This document shows positions 1 through 5,666 of a DNA stretch of 5,666 bases, piece by piece; the first letter of the stretch is position 1; every line of letters begins with the position of its first letter. The notes beneath the pieces are model-generated. The model searched no databases and had not been told where the DNA came from. It saw only the letters and a program-made list of their open reading frames with translations. The stretch lies in the IMG/VR virus record IMGVR_UViG_2778261420_000014, one strand, 5' to 3'. A program made the position numbers and the translations under genes. The DNA comes from a virus (Duplodnaviria > Heunggongvirae > Uroviricota > Caudoviricetes).

Positions 1-59
1 TGGCGGCCTCAGTCCGGAACAATTTGAAAACAAGAACCTCGCTTAGGCCTGTGTCCATA

Positions 60-365
60 TTACGTGGGTAGGATCAAATCAGACTTATCACGGTTACATA
101 GCCCCAGTGCTGATAGCAGACTTACATTCAAACTAAGACTATCCCCATAAGTCAGAGGATTGGGTATAACTGGCTGTGGAGTTTCAGCGAGCAGGTTCGC
201 CGGTAACGGTATCGTTGGAACCTGCACGTATACTGTCCGCGTACTTCCGCAACCGGTCAGCAGCGACATCAGGCACAGGGCGTGAAGCGCAATCATCTTC
301 CGCAACAGCCACTTTGATATCTTCCTGGGTTCTCTGTGACTCCAGTGCGATCTGCTGTTTTGCAT
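60..365 (-). CDS. Rz1: o-spanin (Rz1-type outer-membrane lipoprotein), overlapped with Rz in the +1 frame
   Basis: Open frame 60..527 (-) is out of frame with Rz. It contains a lipobox L-T-G-C preceded by a hydrophobic stretch (MIALHALCLMSLL) and followed by a Pro-rich region (VQVPTIPLP...PQPVIPNP), typical of Rz1. ATG at 365-363 has GGAGG 9 nt upstream; alternative ATG starts at 296 and 269 would give shorter signal peptides. The frame runs 124 nt past the Rz stop. Confidence 0.5.
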   Translation of the reverse strand: MQNSRSHWSHREPRKISKWLLRKMIALHALCLMSLLTGCGSTRTVYVQVPTIPLPANLLAETPQPVIPNPLTYGDSLSLNVSLLSALGLCNRDKSDLILPT

Positions 366-576
366 GCTGGTTAGCCTCCAAAACTGTATTGACGATTTGC
401 ATTGATTGCAGGACGTTATTGGTAATGGCAGTTGCTGATTCAGCATTTTGTACAGCCTCATCAGCACGTTTCTTTTCGTACTGATATTTGCTGTAGTAGT
501 AGTTGGCTGACCAGATGAAAGAACCAATGGCAGTAACGAAAAAAGCAGCGATAATCAGCTTATAACTCAACTTCAT
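184..576 (-). CDS. Rz: i-spanin (Rz-type inner-membrane spanin subunit)
   Basis: 130 aa with an N-terminal TM segment (LIIAAFFVTAIGSFIW), then a charged, helix-prone periplasmic domain with a Cys near the C-terminus. Start overlaps the 3' end of the endolysin gene; GGTGGGGTGG purine-rich SD-like sequence lies just upstream of the ATG. Position directly after the endolysin and the out-of-frame lipoprotein ORF match spanin architecture. Confidence 0.7.
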   Translation of the reverse strand: MKLSYKLIIAAFFVTAIGSFIWSANYYYSKYQYEKKRADEAVQNAESATAITNNVLQSMQIVNTVLEANQHAKQQIALESQRTQEDIKVAVAEDDCASRPVPDVAADRLRKYADSIRAGSNDTVTGEPAR

Positions 577-1036
577 TTACCACCCCACCAGCCTCTTTAA
601 ATCGGGCAATCAGGTCACCGATTTTATGTTCATACTGACCGTAACCTGCGCCCGGCAGTGAAGCCCAGATATTGCTGCAACGATCGATAGCCTGACGGAT
701 ATCACCGCGATCAATCATCGGTAAAGCGCCACGCTCTTTAATCTGCTGCAATGCCACTGCGTCCTGGCTTTTGGGGGAGAAGTCTTTCAGACCAAGCTGT
801 TTACGGTAAGCATCCCACCATCGGGAAAGAATCTGGTAGCGTCCAGCAGCCGTTGATTTAAGTTTTGGGTTTAGCGTGACAAGTTTGCGAGGGTGGTCGG
901 AGTAATCAGTGAAGAGTTCACCACCGACAATAACGTCATAACCGTGGTTACATGTCGGTTGCCGTCCATTATCCGTTCCTTCTGACCATGCCACCATATC
1001 GAGGAAAGCTTTACGCTGGGAATTTAGTACCTGCAT
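560..1036 (-). CDS. R: Endolysin, lambda R-type lytic transglycosylase
   Basis: 158 aa, the same length as lambda R, and matching it at most positions along the whole protein as I recall it (e.g. QRKAFLDM.AWSEGTDNGRQ, HGYDVIVGGELFTDYSDHPRKLVTLNPKLKST, RWWDAYRKQLGLKDFSPKSQDAVALQQIKERGALPMIDRGDIRQAIDRCSNIWASLPGAGYGQ), including the AWSEGT segment that holds the catalytic Glu. Strong SD AAGGAG about 8 nt upstream of ATG 1036. Confidence 0.95.
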   Translation of the reverse strand: MQVLNSQRKAFLDMVAWSEGTDNGRQPTCNHGYDVIVGGELFTDYSDHPRKLVTLNPKLKSTAAGRYQILSRWWDAYRKQLGLKDFSPKSQDAVALQQIKERGALPMIDRGDIRQAIDRCSNIWASLPGAGYGQYEHKIGDLIARFKEAGGVVNEVEL

Positions 1037-1039
1037 AAA

Positions 1040-1375
1040 TTACTCCTTAGAGCCACCAAACTTGTTACCGATTACTCTCATTGCAGCCCCACGAATTGCA
1101 TCGACCCCGATCAGCCCCACCCCACCACCAATGGCAACAGAAAGCGATTTAGGCCATCCGACATACTCAAGCGCGGATGCAAAGGTCAGCGTCAGAGCGC
1201 CACAGAGCAAAATTTCGAGTGTTTTTCGTTTCCAGCCGCCACCACCACCAAAATAGGCAATACGCAAACCAGCCATAACAATCGACATAATCACTGCGCC
1301 CAGCGGCGTATCTCCACGCCACCAGCTCTGGAACAACTCCAGCCAGTCCGGCCAGGTATTTGGGTTATGAGGCAT
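1040..1375 (-). CDS. Holin (three predicted TM segments, lambda S-like topology)
   Basis: Sits immediately upstream of the endolysin; its TAA stop is 3 nt before the R ATG. Three hydrophobic segments (LGAVIMSIVMAGLRIAYF; TLEILLCGALTLTFASALEYVGW; LSVAIGGGVGLIGVDAI) and a charged C-terminus. Called from ATG 1375, giving 111 aa; the ORF track's longer form begins at a GTG (1447) and would run through the terminator hairpin at 1429-1445, so it is judged an over-extension. Confidence 0.75.
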   Translation of the reverse strand: MPHNPNTWPDWLELFQSWWRGDTPLGAVIMSIVMAGLRIAYFGGGGGWKRKTLEILLCGALTLTFASALEYVGWPKSLSVAIGGGVGLIGVDAIRGAAMRVIGNKFGGSKE

Positions 1376-1417
1376 TTCGTCATCTCTCACCTCGCGATTA
1401 TTTGCGGGTGCTGTGTT

Positions 1418-1445
1418 GGAAATAAAAAGGCCACGCAACGTGGCC
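1418..1445 (-). terminator. Rho-independent terminator between methyltransferase and holin (minus strand)
   Basis: Perfect 7-bp GC-rich inverted repeat GGCCACG-caa-CGTGGCC (1429-1445). On the minus-strand transcript it is followed directly by UUUUUAUUUCC (complement of 1418-1428). It lies 8 nt after the methyltransferase stop and about 40 nt before the holin ATG. Confidence 0.65.
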
Positions 1446-1452
1446 ACCAGAA

Positions 1453-2505
1453 TTATTTCCCCACCAGTTCACTTACCTCTTTCACTGTCTGGTTAAACCG
1501 ATCTGACTCAAGCTCAACACCTAACGCCCGACGCCCCAGCTCCATTGCTGCTTTTATTGTGGAACCAGATCCCATAAAAAAATCAGCAACCAGATCACCT
1601 GGTCGACTACTGGCATTGATTATTTGCCGGAGCATATCCGCCGGTTTCTCACACGGATGTTTACCCGGGTAGAACTGAACGGGTTTATGCGTCCAGACAT
1701 CGGTATAAGGCACGGAGACTGATACGGAGAAATAGCGCCGGAGAGATTTAAACTCATCCAGCAATTCAGAATATTTGCGATTCAGTGAATCATAAGATGC
1801 CACCAGCTGGTGGTGTGGTTGTTCCAGTTGTTGTTTCTGAAACTTCTCTGCCGCTATACGGGAAAAAAGTGCCTGCAACTTCCGGTAGTCAGCCTCATTC
1901 GGCAACTGCCACTGACTGGCACCAAACCAGTGGGAAACCATGTTTTTCTTACCAGTGGCTTCGGCAATCTGTTTTGCCGTTATACCCAGTTCGGCACGTG
2001 CATCCCTGAAATACGATATCAGCGGTGCCATTATGTGCTGTTTGAGTTCCCTTTCTTTTTCCGCATAGCCGTCACTTTTGCCGCGATATGGCCCCTGGTA
2101 ATGTTCAGCAAACAGAACGCGCTCTGTGGCAGGAAAATATGCGCGCAGACTTTCTTTATTACACCCATTCCAACGTCCGGACGGCTTCGCCCAGATGATA
2201 TGGTTAAGCACGTTGAAACGTTCACGCATCATGATCTCAATATCAGATGCCAGGCGATGCCCACAGAACAGGTAAAGGCTTCCGGCAGGTTTCAACACCC
2301 GCCAGAACTGGGCCAGACAGTGGTCCAGCCACTTAAGGTAATCTTCGTCCCCTTTCCACTGATTGTCCCAACCGTTGGGTTTCACCTTGAAGTAAGGCGG
2401 ATCGGTAACAATCAGGTCAATGGAATCATCAGGCAGGGACTGAATAAAATGCAGGCAATCAGCGTTGATTAAATCAACACTGTTTATTTTTACAGTATTT
2501 TTCAT
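1453..2505 (-). CDS. Orphan DNA methyltransferase, beta-class N6-adenine/N4-cytosine amino-methyltransferase (PF01555-like)
   Basis: 350 aa. N-terminal DPPY motif (DLIVTDPPYF, motif IV) and C-terminal FxGxG SAM-binding motif (DFFMGSGST, motif I), with HPCEKP between; the IV-before-I order defines the beta group. No adjacent restriction endonuclease gene in the window. Confidence 0.9.
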   Translation of the reverse strand: MKNTVKINSVDLINADCLHFIQSLPDDSIDLIVTDPPYFKVKPNGWDNQWKGDEDYLKWLDHCLAQFWRVLKPAGSLYLFCGHRLASDIEIMMRERFNVLNHIIWAKPSGRWNGCNKESLRAYFPATERVLFAEHYQGPYRGKSDGYAEKERELKQHIMAPLISYFRDARAELGITAKQIAEATGKKNMVSHWFGASQWQLPNEADYRKLQALFSRIAAEKFQKQQLEQPHHQLVASYDSLNRKYSELLDEFKSLRRYFSVSVSVPYTDVWTHKPVQFYPGKHPCEKPADMLRQIINASSRPGDLVADFFMGSGSTIKAAMELGRRALGVELESDRFNQTVKEVSELVGK

Positions 2506-2654
2506 GGATCAGTAAGCGTAACTCTGGTAGGCTCACTCTGCTTTTGCGCTAAAGCAGTGGGCCGTGGTTCGCTTGTGACCAGTAGGCATGAGCGAATGGC
2601 TGGCAGGTGCTACCAACACCCACCAGCCGCCCATTTTCACAAATTAAAAGCCCT

Positions 2655-2873
2655 TCATTGCTGAAGGCGTCTGTAACAGCCGAACTGGTAATCTACCAGC
2701 CCCGCCATAACCAGCTGGGTCAGTATTAACTGACAGCGTTCGCGTGAAAGGTATGTGTTTTGTGCAATCTCCCCGACTGTTGCCGGTTCGATGCTTAATT
2801 CATTAAAAACAACTTTCGCCGTTTCTGTCATATCTTGCTGTTTTAGCATGTCTTTTTCCCTTCTGGTTAACAT
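2655..2873 (-). CDS. Small hypothetical protein with a possible helix-turn-helix / winged-helix segment
   Basis: 72-aa ORF; the segment TVGEIAQNTYLSRERCQLILTQLVMAGLV looks like an HTH recognition region. The likelier start is the internal ATG at 2849 (64 aa), which has AAGGGAAAAAG about 8 nt upstream; ATG 2873 lacks a clear SD. Function is inferred only. Confidence 0.5.
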   Translation of the reverse strand: MLTRREKDMLKQQDMTETAKVVFNELSIEPATVGEIAQNTYLSRERCQLILTQLVMAGLVDYQFGCYRRLQQ

Positions 2874-2971
2874 GACATACCAATAACTCTTGTCTAAAAA
2901 GCCAGCAAGATAAAAAGTCAGTATTCACGACCACCAGCGTGTTTACCGTACTGCTCTTGGTTTACAGGTAC

Positions 2972-2996
2972 AAAAAAACCGCTCGACGGCGGGTTT
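2972..2996 (-). terminator. Candidate intrinsic terminator upstream of the minus-strand gene block
   Basis: Minus-strand RNA would fold as AAAC-CCGC / GCGG-UUU (4 GC pairs plus 3 A-U pairs with one bulged residue, 6-nt loop) followed by a U7 tract (complement of A-run 2972-2978). The short GC stem keeps confidence modest. Confidence 0.35.
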
Positions 2997-3041
2997 AAGC
3001 TGTGTGGCGAAGTAACCACTCTTAACAGATTATGATAGTTT

Positions 3042-3079
3042 TTGCGTACGCGTTAGTAATTTATTATGCTCTTTACAAT
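3042..3079 (+). promoter_or_regulatory. Candidate sigma70-type promoter region for the plus-strand two-gene cassette
   Basis: AT-rich region directly upstream of the cassette. Weak hexamer candidates: TTGCGT (3042-3047), a 17-nt spacer, then TATGCT (3065-3070); alternative -10-like TATTAT (3062-3067) and TACAAT (3074-3079). None is close to consensus; exact placement is uncertain. Confidence 0.2.
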
Positions 3080-3094
3080 TGTTAGCTTAACCGC

Positions 3095-4261
3095 ATGGAA
3101 TTGACCAAAAAAATGAGCAAAGCAAGCATACGCCACGTAATCGTTCATGAGCTCTTAAAAGAATCTAATAAAGACTTCGATCACTCCAAACCATACAATC
3201 TTCGTGATACAGAACTAGATAAAACAAATGATATAGTAAAAAAATTAGTAGACGGTGTTATTGATTTGTATGGTTCAAAAGGGAACTCAGCGCATTATGG
3301 TGTTTTTATTAAAAATAAAACAAAGCAAGGCCCTATACCAGAACTATTTCATAAATACTCTTTAGTTCAACAATCTGTTTCAAGTGATTTCATTGAATTA
3401 TCGAAGGAAGTTATGAAACAAATGTATAAATCTGCTCAAGAGCAGATTTGGGCTTCTGGAGGATATGTTGTTTTTACTGATTATATTTTATCTGGTTTCC
3501 GTTATCTATTGGTTACAATGATCAAAAAAACTAATGGCGTAACTATTAGTGAAAATTTAGAGCCAGAGGAAATGATTCACTTAGAACTTGGTAATATTAA
3601 CCAAGCAGCAAAAATAAATTTCAGATATTATGAAGAATACCAAAAAGCAGATGACTTAAAAAAAACAGACTTAAGTTATCTAAGCTTTATAAGCAAAACT
3701 ACGGGACAGTCAGCGGCAGCATATTTTATAGCAGCATTAGGATGTGACAAGGGGATTGCTTCAGCAGGTGCAACCCGTAAGTTACCAGATGAAATAAGGC
3801 GTTTCTTTAAGAAAGAACCTCTTTTAAAAAATCAAGCAGAGTCATTTAGAAATGATGTTATCAAATACTTAGAAAAGCAATTTGACAACGAGCACTCTGC
3901 AAGGCTTTCTGATATCGAATCGCTTGCTTCAGGCCATATGTCCGATTTAAAAGAGGAAGAAAAAACAGAACTTGTTGATAAATTAATGAAACACCTCAAT
4001 AGTGAGGAAGTCAGAATCCCATCAGAGTTCGTAATCAATAAAAACTCCTTAGATAAAATCCGCAATGTGATATATAAAACCCCATCATTGAGCTTTCACT
4101 TCGACAAGGATTTACTCGGTGTCACAACTGATGCTAAAATATATTATGATGACGAAAACCAAAGCCTAACATTTAATAATTTGCCTGTTGAAGCATTAAC
4201 TAAGATAAGAAGAGCGTTGAAAGAAACTGATAACCCGAGTAATGAAGAAGATAAAGAATGA
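3095..4261 (+). CDS. NdpA/YejK-like nucleoid-associated protein homolog (PF04245-like), divergent
   Basis: 388-aa ORF. Segments parallel remembered E. coli YejK motifs along the whole length: [10 protein letters not shown] vs [44 protein letters not shown] vs [60 protein letters not shown] vs [24 protein letters not shown]; C-terminal [12 protein letters not shown]...LTFNNLP vs LTINFDAMLLG...LTIKGTPP. The true start may be ATG 3113 (MSKASIRHV...), which aligns with the YejK N-terminus. Stop overlaps the next start (ATGA at 4258-4261). Confidence 0.8.
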   Translation: [388 protein letters not shown]

Positions 4262-5484
4262 ATGATTTTAGTATAATAGTTAATCTGTATAGATTATCAA
4301 GCTATCCTCATTTTGACGGGGCTAAGTTTTCTGCGCGTATAGCTTATAATGCAGACGTAAAATCATTGTTCAAAAGAATTTTGAACCCTACTTTTCAAGC
4401 TGGTACAGCTGACGAAATAGAGGTGGATGGTCATTTAATTTATGATTATGAAGACTTTCCTGAAAAGGGAAATTTTCTTACATACTCGTTTAAAATTTCA
4501 CAAGGAAGTGCGAATCGTTTTTATAAAAATAAAAACGAGTTTGTAAAAATAAACACGCTCAAGAAAGGCATAATGCCAGAATATTTCTATATTATAGAGG
4601 ATGATTTCTATTCATTAGAAACACCAAAACCTTCTTATATCCAAAAAATTGAGGACATTTGTGAGCTAATCAATGCTCTTTCCATGCTTGCTCATTTCCA
4701 TGATATAAAAAAAGATAGCAAAGGTACATTTTATCGTTTAGTCTTTATTTTAAACTCAGAGTCTAAATCTTCTTCTGCTGTAATTGAAACAAATATTACA
4801 GAAGAAATTTTTAATGATAAAACAGTAAATACTCAGTTAGTTAAAACATTAGTAAGTAGTGAAGCTACTACTGATGCCCATCACATTGAAAAGATTAACA
4901 CTTTCAGAAACACAGTTATTGAGTATGTTAATAAAAATGGAAATTCCTTTGTCGAGTTAATTAACAAGTGGGATTTCATATGCGAACTTTATACGAACAA
5001 CTTAGCTGCTTATATGTCGGCATTTTCTTTTCATAAAGCAAGGAAAGAAGTTGTTGATGCTGAACTCGATTACTCAGAAAAACTGTCAAAAATAATTTCA
5101 GAAATTTCTAACAAAGCTCTTGCAATACCTATTTCACTAGCTGGTTCAATTGCTATTTTCAAATTAACAACAAAAACTGATTGGATTATTGCTTTAATTG
5201 GATTGATTATCACAGCAATAATAACATCTGCAATGATTGTGTCACAAAAAAAACAACTCGCTCGTATTTCACACTCTAAAGAAATACTTTTTGGACAATT
5301 AAGATATAGAATAAAGGATGACACCAGCGATCTTAAAGAGAGCTTAGAAGAGGCTATTAAAAAATTAAATGACAATGAGGATTTTTGTCATAAGGTGCTT
5401 GACAGTTTATTATCACTAGCATGGATGCCTACATTCATAGGCATCATCGGTATTTTATTTAAATTAATGCCAAATATTACTTGA
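4258..5484 (+). CDS. Hypothetical membrane protein: ~285-aa N-terminal domain of unknown function plus three C-terminal TM helices
   Basis: 408-aa ORF overlapping the upstream gene by ATGA. Predicted TM segments: ALAIPISLAGSIAIFKL (~aa 287-303), WIIALIGLIITAIITSAMIVS (~aa 309-329) and LLSLAWMPTFIGIIGILFKLM (~aa 383-404), with a charged ~50-aa linker between TM2 and TM3. No recognisable catalytic motif in the N-terminal domain. Confidence 0.8.
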   Translation: MNDFSIIVNLYRLSSYPHFDGAKFSARIAYNADVKSLFKRILNPTFQAGTADEIEVDGHLIYDYEDFPEKGNFLTYSFKISQGSANRFYKNKNEFVKINTLKKGIMPEYFYIIEDDFYSLETPKPSYIQKIEDICELINALSMLAHFHDIKKDSKGTFYRLVFILNSESKSSSAVIETNITEEIFNDKTVNTQLVKTLVSSEATTDAHHIEKINTFRNTVIEYVNKNGNSFVELINKWDFICELYTNNLAAYMSAFSFHKARKEVVDAELDYSEKLSKIISEISNKALAIPISLAGSIAIFKLTTKTDWIIALIGLIITAIITSAMIVSQKKQLARISHSKEILFGQLRYRIKDDTSDLKESLEEAIKKLNDNEDFCHKVLDSLLSLAWMPTFIGIIGILFKLMPNIT

Positions 5485-5666
5485 GCATGTACATAACCCC
5501 ATTAATGAAACCTAACGCAGTCTGCAATTGCTTCCGGATTGTTCCATCTGAGCATCTGCGTCTCTTCGCAATAGAACGCAGTGAAATACTGGATTTGCCC
5601 CTATATTTCCAGACACCTGTTATCACTTAACCCATTACTGGCCTGCTGCCGCAGATATTCCCGTGG

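Follow-up and report, generated by a model that had tools for sequence, protein, structure and literature searches.

An M.EcoGII-family adenine methyltransferase gene behind a conserved structured leader in the late-operon slot of lambdoid prophages

Introduction

The closest described systems are M.EcoGII (GenBank EGT69837.1) and M.EcoGI from Escherichia coli O104:H4 C227-11. They share with the gene analysed here the beta-class order of motifs, a length of 349–350 amino acids, a prophage location, Q179 in a recognition domain predicted to be helical, and the lack of a partner endonuclease. The prototype of this family is sold as a commercial enzyme. A published AlphaFold model of the family contains a four-helix recognition domain with a helix-turn-helix and a flexible charged linker. 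The nearest site-specific relative, M.PflMI, is only 27% identical to M.EcoGII, and the charged linker is absent from it (PMC11551740). The reconstructed ancestor Anc291 reportedly acts on both DNA and RNA, and neither for it nor for SUPREM was an RNA sequence motif found. Adenine methyltransferases have also been expressed from natural homologues that fall between the nodes Anc291 and Anc289.

As to physiology, M.EcoGI and M.EcoGII were found to be silent in the lysogen and harmful when constitutively expressed (PMC5778455). Heavily methylated plasmid DNA transformed E. coli with an efficiency 4–5 orders of magnitude lower (Murray et al., PMC5778455), and the enzyme of phage 1720a-02 was described in the same work as very similar to M.EcoGII (PMC5778455). 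Non-specific activity, silence in the lysogen, and toxicity are taken here from this literature on the family. The methyltransferase is not mentioned in the phage 1720a-02 'bully phage' paper, the Pas sRNA preprint, or the StxS paper. Genes equivalent to orf48 of phage SfV (NP_599080.1) are carried by phages cdtI, mEp460, Ayreon, and phiP27. Other phage methyltransferases such as the Dam enzymes of T4 and P1 are likewise orphan and thought to shield phage DNA from restriction. Phage Dam-type enzymes are of other classes and act at short motifs.

We analysed a stretch of 5,666 nucleotides from a tailed phage (IMG/VR record IMGVR_UViG_2778261420_000014), called the window in the following, in which an earlier note had seen an orphan methyltransferase gene upstream of a lysis cassette. 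The features of the window are collected in Table 1.

Table 1. Features assigned in the window, with strand and the basis of each assignment
Feature	Position	Strand	Basis
IS3 end truncating the o-spanin gene Rz1	1..77	.	100% matches to 'IS3-like element IS3 family transposase'
Rz1 o-spanin, embedded in Rz, C-terminus altered by IS3	60-296	(-)	translations
Rz i-spanin	184..576	(-)	phrog_214; translations
Endolysin, lambda R-like, GH104	560..1036	(-)	phrog_90; PGAP annotation
Lambda-family holin S	1040..1375	(-)	TIGR01594, E 1.4e-36; PGAP coordinates in YF-1
Intrinsic terminator between methyltransferase stop and holin start	1429..1445	(-)	hairpin scan, z -2.8
M.EcoGII-family beta-class N6-adenine DNA methyltransferase, 350 aa	1453..2505	(-)	intact ORF, PF01555, family identities
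SAM-binding motif I FMGSG, aa 310-314	1564..1578	(-)	alignment of 36 homologues
Predicted target-recognition domain, aa 160-237, helical with HTH	1795..2028	(-)	limits from PMC11551740
Catalytic motif IV DPPY, aa 35-38	2392..2403	(-)	invariant across 36 homologues
Conserved structured 5' leader of the methyltransferase mRNA, 140 nt	2506..2645	(-)	conservation, covariation, covariance model
Terminator-like hairpin at the winged-helix gene stop, directly 5' of the leader	2652..2667	(-)	weak, z -1.1
Stand-alone winged-helix protein, 64 aa	2655..2849	(-)	ORF, AAGGGA Shine-Dalgarno, fold
Block of putative late promoter, short leader transcript, and tR'-like terminator (hairpin 2978-2990)	2970..3066	(-)	homology, synteny; promoter inferred
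AT-rich two-gene insertion between Q stop and late-promoter block	3067..5476	(+)	profile searches, synteny
NA37/YejK-like protein	3095 or 3113 to 4261	(+)	PF04245, E 2.3e-50
408-aa partner of the NA37/YejK-like protein	4258-5484	(+)	ORF
C-terminal remnant (~37 codons) of a PF06530-type Q antiterminator	5477..5589	(-)	comparison with YF-1 Q
IS3-family element end, inserted in Q	5590..5666	.	100% matches to 'IS3 family transposase' loci

Identity and predicted specificity of the methyltransferase

The methyltransferase gene is a single open reading frame without interruption. It lies on the minus strand, which the earlier note had left out. Its product matched the Pfam family PF01555 (N6_N4_Mtase) over residues 29–341 with an E value of 1.9e-42; at 146 bits, where the cut-off is 26.7, the match is far beyond chance. 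Motif IV precedes motif I with the recognition domain between them, which is the beta-class order, and within motif I the 36 homologues all agree at F310, G312, S313, and G314 and nearly all at M311. The original assignment as an orphan beta-class amino-methyltransferase was thus borne out, and so was the claim that a cognate restriction enzyme is missing, as neither the list of open reading frames nor profile searches revealed a restriction endonuclease-like ORF in the window. The intact relatives in SfV and E. coli YF-1 also have no adjacent restriction endonuclease, only terminase-associated HNH genes. The enzyme is probably dimeric and SAM-dependent. As a protein it is ordinary, and its family is already known: a gene of the M.EcoGII family was present in 2720 of 5426 complete E. 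coli genomes, which is about half, with up to 8 copies per genome.

The window protein is 98% identical to SfV orf48, with which it also shares the gene order, and 81% identical to the phage 1720a-02 methyltransferase. Compared with M.EcoGII, 281 of 350 residues agree overall (~81%), 60 of 78 in the recognition domain (77%), and 17/25 and 16/22 in the linkers; these values are approximate because the M.EcoGII reference was machine-read from a supplementary PDF with a few obvious reading errors. The overall figure fits the 81% found for the enzyme of phage 1720a-02. About 19% of the residues thus differ from M.EcoGII, and unlike the latter the window allele belongs to an SfV/mEp460 sub-branch that is closer to Anc291, to which it is 88% identical. 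Reconstructed ancestors down to ~70% identity with the window protein were reported to be active on DNA and RNA.

A search of the PDB found no deposited structure of M.EcoGII. With the methyltransferase sequence it returned partial matches to the core only, namely an unnamed 'Methyltransferase' (8urk/9c3u), RsrI, MboIIA, and CcrM. An AF2 model from a shallow alignment reached a pLDDT of 65 overall and stayed below 50 in residues 99–152 and 251–287. Within this low-confidence model the helices of the recognition domain appeared at 146–173, 177–184, 190–194, and 204–223, where they were expected. The domain carries Q179, the residue reported for the DNA-preferring clade (PMC11551740), and not E179.

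From the homology to M.EcoGII we predict that the enzyme modifies adenine in any context: the helical recognition domain would bind nucleic acid without reading its sequence, so that no surrounding motif would be needed. The earlier note had held that target specificity cannot be read from the sequence, which appears too cautious given the close agreement with M.EcoGII and Anc291. A sequence-specific orphan enzyme that guards against one particular restriction system is very improbable. Such an enzyme would fit the RefSeq/PGAP name 'site-specific DNA-methyltransferase', the weak similarity to YhdJ, CcrM, RsrI, and 8urk/9c3u, and the 18 of 78 recognition-domain residues that are unlike those of M.EcoGII. 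However, the RefSeq name is generic, and the site-specific beta-class enzymes M.PflMI, M.RsrI, M1.MboII, CcrM, and YhdJ have the catalytic core and motifs in common with the window enzyme and match nowhere over residues 115–280. The NCBIfam models for CcrM (NF050803, 68 bits against a cut-off of 830) and YhdJ (NF008572, 109 bits against 292) scored far under their curated cut-offs with core-only coverage, and identity with either equivalog was rejected. Moreover, 81% identity to a non-specific enzyme stands against 27% between M.EcoGII and its closest site-specific relative, and neither the DNA and RNA activity of the ancestors nor the lack of an RNA motif for Anc291 and SUPREM speaks for a defined target site. 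The YF-1 prophage additionally carries a Dam-like 'phage N-6-adenine-methyltransferase' in its early region, whereas the window enzyme is predicted to be late and non-specific.

Position in the late operon

The methyltransferase is phage-borne and followed by holin, endolysin, and Rz genes, which agrees with the placement upstream of the lysis cassette that had been proposed. Eighty related phage loci were surveyed and upstream DNA was fetched for 78 of them. The order Q antiterminator, late promoter/terminator block, small winged-helix gene, methyltransferase, terminator, and lysis genes was found in 76/78 loci. In SfV the order is Q, terminator, orf47, orf48, terminator, S, R, Rz, and E. coli YF-1 shows the same order with an intact Q. 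The YF-1 prophage lies at 3.763–3.780 Mb of NZ_CP161809.1. The parts of a lambdoid Q-dependent late operon are therefore present by synteny in SfV, YF-1, and these 76 loci, and in the window Q is truncated. Downstream, a lambda-type holin and endolysin were found in 27/80 loci; one other locus that was inspected (L027) has a phage-21-type lysis cassette.

The block at 2970-3066 is homologous to phage 1720a-02 sequence that begins at the Q stop codon. It occurred in all 36 loci with a PF06530-type Q and in none of the 34 with a PF03589-type Q. In SfV a lambda-type Q (PF03589) lies directly upstream, whereas in the window Q is of the PF06530 type, is cut by an insertion sequence, and is separated by a 2.4-kb insertion. 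The SfV annotation has a terminator at the place equivalent to window 2978-2990. Position and conservation point to a late promoter within the block. A consensus scan found no sigma-70-like promoter in 2505-3070(-), where an atypical promoter is possible; the number of sites was no higher than in shuffled sequence, with no call at the expected late promoter.

The claim that terminator-like structures flank the gene was confirmed. The one at 1445-1429(-) is strong, with a stem of 7 bp of which 6 are GC, followed by TTTTTATTT; it is conserved in 79/80 loci and annotated as a terminator in SfV. The hairpin at 2667-2652(-) is weaker and overlaps the small ORF at its stop codon, and loci with other upstream genes have their own hairpin with a T-run at this place. 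A third terminator-like hairpin, 2990-2978(-), lies upstream of the small ORF. Following the general pR'/tR' logic of late operons (PMC7547250), these hairpins around the methyltransferase would be terminators that are read through by Q-modified polymerase.

The two-gene island between Q and the promoter block is also carried by one other surveyed locus (L020). Its proteins showed weak, below-cut-off matches to the NCBIfam anti-phage proteins DS1_1 and DS1_2, PADLOC gave no match for either of the two island proteins, and 'DS-1' could not be traced in the literature.

The winged-helix gene and the structured leader

The small HTH-like ORF that had been noticed in front of the methyltransferase was substantiated, as its product is predicted to adopt a canonical winged helix (pLDDT 88.6). 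The start at 2849 is the most likely one, with the Shine-Dalgarno sequence AAGGGA; an alternative reading of 72 amino acids from 2873 has none. No match was obtained in a PDB sequence search, and a fold search gave generic matches to IclR, ArsR, MarR, and Z-alpha. The wing signature of Z-alpha domains is Pro-Pro-x-Trp; a Z-alpha reading was rejected, as the wing appears to lack this signature. The slot upstream of the leader is most often filled by this gene, yet the gene is replaceable: other genes take its place in 13/35 Klebsiella-type loci, where leader and methyltransferase stay. For this reason a role as a controller-protein-like partner of the methyltransferase was downgraded.

Between this gene and the methyltransferase lies a conserved RNA element that is not catalogued, and this element is the new point of the present analysis. 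Its DNA identity is 88%, compared with 74% for the methyltransferase coding sequence. Three helices were delineated. Hairpin P2 is formed by 2619-2628 and 2598-2608, and hairpin P4 by 2551-2556 and 2539-2544. In the long-range helix P5, 2571-2580 is paired with 2507-2517, a stretch of 11 nt just in front of the AUG. No Shine-Dalgarno sequence precedes the methyltransferase AUG in the leader. Compensatory base-pair changes occur across Enterobacterales, with 15 pairs showing double changes against 6.5+/-1.4 in shuffles (0/500); they are seen only with species-level diversity, and among close homologues there was no covariation. G-U pairs are tolerated on the sense strand, as in a transcribed structured RNA. 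The covariance model matched only the leader site in each locus, with 83–161 bits. In Rfam 15, cmscan of 2506-2645 gave no match at E <= 1. A scan of the whole window gave one chance-level match, which lies elsewhere. A 33-aa ORF from a conserved AUG at 2634 was discarded, as codon 8 is an in-frame TAG in the majority of homologues and the substitutions mostly change the amino acid.

Lacking a Shine-Dalgarno sequence and pairing the bases before the AUG, the leader probably holds translation of the toxic enzyme low, a function we infer from its structure. Tentatively, it may represent a previously undescribed cis-regulatory RNA specific to M.EcoGII-family genes across Enterobacterales that gates translation through sequestered pre-AUG bases, perhaps in response to a late-phase factor or to a metabolite, for instance SAM or SAH.

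These results also bear on the earlier suggestion of a self-contained transcription unit, which was not supported: no promoter was found in 2505-3070(-), and many phages carry the gene at one constant place within their Q-antiterminated late operon. A moron that brings its own promoter and terminator and is active in the lysogen, where it reprogrammes host gene expression epigenetically, might explain the hairpins on both sides, the small protein of DNA-binding type upstream, and the high conservation of the 150 nt upstream. However, the coding strand has no promoter-like site there, the conserved region behaves as structured RNA, the winged-helix gene is replaceable, and M.EcoGI and M.EcoGII leave no trace in the lysogen methylome and slow growth when expressed constitutively, which makes a moron extremely unlikely. 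The late-operon reading is preferred.

State of the copy in the window

Two IS3-family elements have cut genes of this prophage. The Q gene was cut by an IS3-family element at 5589/5590: the Q of YF-1 has 114 amino acids, and the window sequence diverges from it at 5590 and runs into an in-frame stop. The inserted end gave 100% matches in 3113 E. coli genomes and is presumably IS2-like. At the other end of the window, Rz1 was cut by IS3 at about position 77, and its last 17 amino acids are replaced by 4 from the junction. That insertion sequences have cost this copy its regulator had been missed in the earlier note.

In view of these elements in Q and Rz1, the window copy most likely persists as an intact but silent passenger of a decaying prophage, barring a compatible Q in trans. 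Lambda Q is trans-acting by nature. A PF06530-type Q from another prophage of the same genome could therefore keep this copy expressed, and the block 2970-3066 and every part from there to the holin are intact. The up to 8 family copies per E. coli genome suggest, by proxy, several lambdoid prophages, each of which should supply a Q. Against such expression, Q proteins are promoter-specific, and the IS/Q junction was not found in a species-representative genome collection. We consider continued expression in trans doubtful and a silent copy the better reading.

Biological role and implications

The earlier note had offered two roles, protection from host restriction and altered host gene regulation. 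The latter is unlikely, since M.EcoGI and M.EcoGII stay silent in a lysogen and do harm if constitutive (PMC5778455). Protection is the most likely role, and the following course is proposed for intact relatives. The late promoter would be constitutively active and its transcripts would end just downstream at 2978-2990, so that the methyltransferase would not be made in the lysogen; its position behind tR' and the lack of a promoter-like site of its own agree with this. After induction, Q would let RNA polymerase pass this terminator, the winged-helix hairpin, and the terminator behind the methyltransferase and go on through the genes for holin, endolysin, and spanins. At this stage, shortly before packaging, the enzyme would modify replicating phage DNA, and progeny would gain a generic protection against restriction that is blocked by N6-methyladenine, as with Type I, Type III, and many Type II systems. 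Q-dependent late expression thus likely gives progeny DNA broad restriction protection.

No report of heavily adenine-methylated virion DNA from such phages was found in the accessible literature. Ordinary restriction enzymes have served to map the DNA of SfV-like phages, which speaks against near-complete methylation, and the transformation loss of heavily methylated plasmid DNA implies that full methylation could harm the phage. The main substrate in vivo might instead be RNA or single-stranded DNA, such as transcripts and replication intermediates late in infection, as M.EcoGII methylates single-stranded DNA almost as well as double-stranded DNA and also acts on RNA. Its rate on RNA is, however, ~100-fold under that on DNA (0.12 versus 11.1; SUPREM supplement) and the window protein has the Q179 of the DNA-preferring clade, so a main substrate other than duplex phage DNA appears most improbable. 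Duplex phage DNA remains the preferred substrate. As a whole, we regard as probable the account of a non-specific M.EcoGII-family enzyme in a Q-dependent late operon that protects progeny, is limited in translation by its leader, and is silenced in this copy by insertion sequences.

The conflict between the public annotation as 'site-specific' and a homology that points to non-specific activity matters for predicting methylomes and restriction barriers from genomes. How phages hold back a dangerous enzyme until late is suggested by its fixed slot behind tR', the flanking terminators, and the conserved, covarying leader. The leader itself is a testable RNA element absent from Rfam. Should it act as a regulatory switch, it would add a new element to the known phage RNAs and might serve as a tool where toxic genes must be expressed under tight control.

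The methyltransferase and its family

The minus strand of the window carries a run of lambda-type late genes, and the methyltransferase gene lying among them is real and intact but of a known kind. Residues 29–341 of its product match Pfam PF01555 (N6_N4_Mtase; E 1.9e-42), and because motif IV precedes motif I, the order is that of the beta class, as the earlier note had read from the DPPY and FxGxG motifs. Both DPPY and FMGSG are kept in an alignment of 36 homologues. The absence of a cognate restriction enzyme was also borne out, since no ORF of the window resembles a restriction endonuclease; HNH genes adjoining the terminase are the only nuclease-type genes of the intact relatives, phage SfV and the prophage of E. 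coli YF-1.

Features of the window and of the methyltransferase (nucleotide positions in the window; aa, residues of the methyltransferase)
Feature	Position	Strand	Remarks
End of IS3	1–77
Terminator-like hairpin, strong	1445–1429	minus	between methyltransferase and holin
Methyltransferase ORF	1453–2505	minus	uninterrupted, 350 aa
DPPY, catalytic motif IV	aa 35–38
FMGSG, SAM motif I	aa 310–314
Leader	2506–2645	minus	140 nt directly 5' of the methyltransferase AUG
Helix P5	2571–2580 with 2507–2517		compensatory changes in three pairs
Hairpin P2	2619–2628 with 2598–2608		compensatory changes in 9/10 pairs
Terminator-like hairpin, weak	2667–2652	minus	upstream side of methyltransferase
Small ORF upstream of methyltransferase	likely start ATG 2849	minus	AAGGGA Shine-Dalgarno; RefSeq start
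Putative late promoter/terminator block	2970–3066	minus	97 nt; ends in terminator 2978–2990
Third terminator-like hairpin	2990–2978	minus	upstream of small ORF
AT-rich insertion	3067–5476	plus (opposite strand)	2.4 kb; between Q stop 5477 and promoter block 3066; two genes
NA37/YejK-like nucleoid-associated protein	in 3067–5476		PF04245, E 2.3e-50
Partner protein	in 3067–5476		408 aa
End of IS3-family element	5590–5666		100% matches annotated 'IS3 family transposase', 3113 genomes

By megablast against phage records, window 115–2995 is 94% identical to Shigella phage SfV, and the methyltransferase with its upstream region was also found in phages cdtI, mEp460, Ayreon, phiP27, 1720a-02, and several Stx2 phages. 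The protein shares 98% identity with SfV orf48, 81% with the enzyme of phage 1720a-02, 88% with the reconstructed ancestor Anc291 and about 70% with SUPREM. Identity to M.EcoGII is approximately 281/350 overall and approximately 60/78 in the recognition domain (aa 160–237), both values being approximate because the reference sequence, machine-read from Supplementary Table S1 of the SUPREM paper (PMC11551740), has a few obvious errors. M.EcoGII, encoded by a prophage and 349 aa long, methylates adenines whatever the surrounding sequence (Murray et al., PMC5778455). In the SUPREM paper, the closest site-specific relative, M.PflMI, is placed at 27% identity, all ancestors tested down to the SUPREM node methylated DNA and RNA, profiling, done on two of them (Anc291 and SUPREM), revealed no RNA sequence motif, and all genes of the family lay in phage-derived regions (PMC11551740). 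The window enzyme carries Q179, the residue reported there for the DNA-preferring clade. It scored far below the cut-offs of the curated models for YhdJ (109 bits, cut-off 292) and CcrM (68 bits, cut-off 830), and a structure model was too poor to contribute. On these identities, the literature on the ancestors and the sub-cut-off scores of the site-specific models, the enzyme is assigned by sequence to the M.EcoGII family and is predicted to methylate adenine non-specifically. Target specificity had been considered unreadable from the sequence; the prediction from identity to the non-specific M.EcoGII family is that there is none.

At least one copy of the family is present in 2720 of 5426 complete E. 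coli genomes, about half, with up to eight in some. The RefSeq label of the family is 'site-specific DNA-methyltransferase', yet its characterised member is non-specific. Outside the window, the early region of the YF-1 prophage (14297–14950 of L003, the prophage locus) encodes another such enzyme, a Dam-like 'phage N-6-adenine-methyltransferase', and this phage type therefore has two adenine methyltransferases with different expression times.

Position in the late operon and probable control

In SfV, the annotated order is Q, terminator, orf47, orf48 (the methyltransferase), terminator, S, R, and Rz/Rz1. The same order is found in E. coli YF-1, which is 100% identical to window 78–5589 within a complete P27/HK97-type prophage. 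Among 80 viral contigs with a methyltransferase 97–99% identical, 70 have a Q gene upstream, the winged-helix gene precedes the methyltransferase in 76 of the 78 with enough upstream DNA, and the terminator 3' of the methyltransferase is kept in 79. The lysis cassette downstream is of the lambda S type in 27/80, and a phage-21-type pinholin with a SAR endolysin was found in the one other locus inspected (L027). The 77-nt terminator-bearing spacer between methyltransferase and holin (1376–1452, minus) is conserved with the methyltransferase module in 79/80 loci, even where the downstream lysis cassette is of another type. Pas, prophage sRNAs, have been reported adjoining holin genes; no tie to this spacer is established.

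Two unrelated Q families occur at the surveyed loci, PF06530 (as in YF-1 and 1720a-02) and PF03589 (as in SfV). The block at 2970–3066 accompanied a PF06530 Q in 36/36 loci and a PF03589 Q in 0/34, as one would expect if it held a Q-specific late promoter together with the tR' terminator. A sigma-70 scan called no promoter on the minus strand of 2505–3070; we therefore only infer the late promoter, and of a private methyltransferase promoter there is no sign. Lambdoid late promoters are always active, and their transcripts stop at tR' without Q (PMC7547250). The conserved, transcript-like block (minus strand) reads GTTAAGAGTGGTTACTTCGCCACACAGCTTAAACCCGCC...TTTTTTT and matches no Rfam family. 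If lambda 6S RNA and StxS are a guide, it could give a constitutive short RNA in lysogens.

M.EcoGI and M.EcoGII are silent in the lysogen and harmful if constitutively expressed, and it was proposed that induction turns them on to overcome host restriction (Murray et al., PMC5778455). The locus anatomy fits this proposal, and the broad reading of the earlier note, an orphan methyltransferase serving a phage against restriction, is retained. Terminator-like structures do bracket the gene, as the earlier note had said, but the self-contained transcription unit it drew from them gives way to a late-operon gene, given the lack of a sigma-70 call and the Q-linked synteny. The anatomy, like the silence of both characterised enzymes in the lysogen, likewise argues against the suggested host gene regulation during lysogeny.

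Variable slots

The small ORF reported before the methyltransferase is present and encodes a canonical stand-alone winged helix (2655–2849, minus; phrog_331); ATG 2873 is a less likely start than ATG 2849. Two alleles of it, sharing about 49% identity, stand beside methyltransferases that are 98–99% identical, and in some Klebsiella-type phages it is replaced by unrelated proteins of 299, 220, 110, and 134 aa, each ending in its own terminator. This position is a second variable slot.

The other slot lies between Q and the promoter block, where 36/36 viral loci with a PF06530 Q (among L004–L083) have 0.6–1.9 kb of varied DNA, whereas in phage 1720a-02 the equivalent of the block begins directly at the Q stop codon; the gap therefore resembles an insertion hotspot for cargo. 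Both proteins of the island found there weakly match the NCBIfam anti-phage models DS1_1/DS1_2 (about 100 bits; cut-offs 330 and 315), and PADLOC gave no match for them. The island is possibly a divergent, prophage-borne defence system.

Insertion sequences and state of this copy

The match to YF-1 is confined to 78–5589, and both window ends are IS3-family ends, IS3 on the left and on the right an element that we take to be IS2-like. The right-hand junction lies inside Q, which has 114 aa in YF-1 and of which the window retains the last ~37 codons after an in-frame stop; at the left-hand junction, four unrelated residues take the place of the final 17 of the Rz1 o-spanin. Everything from the promoter/terminator block through Rz is intact. 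The 5.5 kb of phage DNA between the two IS ends are either a remnant bracketed by insertion sequences or a prophage interrupted twice, and the IS/Q junction had no match in a species-representative genome collection. This copy has lost its activator Q to an IS element, which corrects the earlier note. With its own Q lost, the methyltransferase should be kept off behind tR', though a compatible Q of another prophage could act on the locus in trans.

A conserved leader RNA

The predicted fold of the 150 nt from the winged-helix gene to the methyltransferase is unusually stable (-58.3 kcal/mol, z -3.2), and no Shine-Dalgarno sequence stands ahead of the AUG at 2505. Between Klebsiella-type phage loci and the window, the last 132 nt of the leader are 88% identical and the coding sequence 74%. 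The leader persists where other genes stand in for the winged-helix gene, each with its own hairpin and T-run directly ahead of it, and lies directly 5' of the start codon in 61 of about 80 loci (one genome per species), from Escherichia to Providencia, Morganella, Yersinia, Lonsdalea, and Rosenbergiella. In the complete E. coli genomes, leader and coding sequence are near-equal in number (4569 places in 2760 genomes and 4139 in 2720). Rfam 15 holds no match to the leader. An ORF from a conserved AUG inside it was rejected, as this ORF is not conserved.

In a covariation test on 56 sequences, both sides had changed in 15 of 30 proposed pairs, compared with 6.5 ± 1.4 in shuffles (0/500 reached 15), and sliding the 3' partners by 1–3 columns left just 4–7 such pairs. 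Compensatory changes of this kind are spread over Enterobacterales. The paired fraction is inflated because the structure was proposed from the same sequences; the double-change counts are less affected by this circularity. The many G-U pairs on the minus strand point to a sense-strand RNA and not to a palindrome at the DNA level. The covariance model derived from these aligned sequences matched only at the leader position of each locus (83–161 bits); Photorhabdus gave a weak match of 76 nt, and Xenorhabdus none.

Helix P5 pairs the 11 nt just 5' of the AUG. As to function, we infer a cis-acting RNA, the leader being read as limiting or timing translation of a toxic enzyme, and this conserved RNA is the only part of the locus that may be new.
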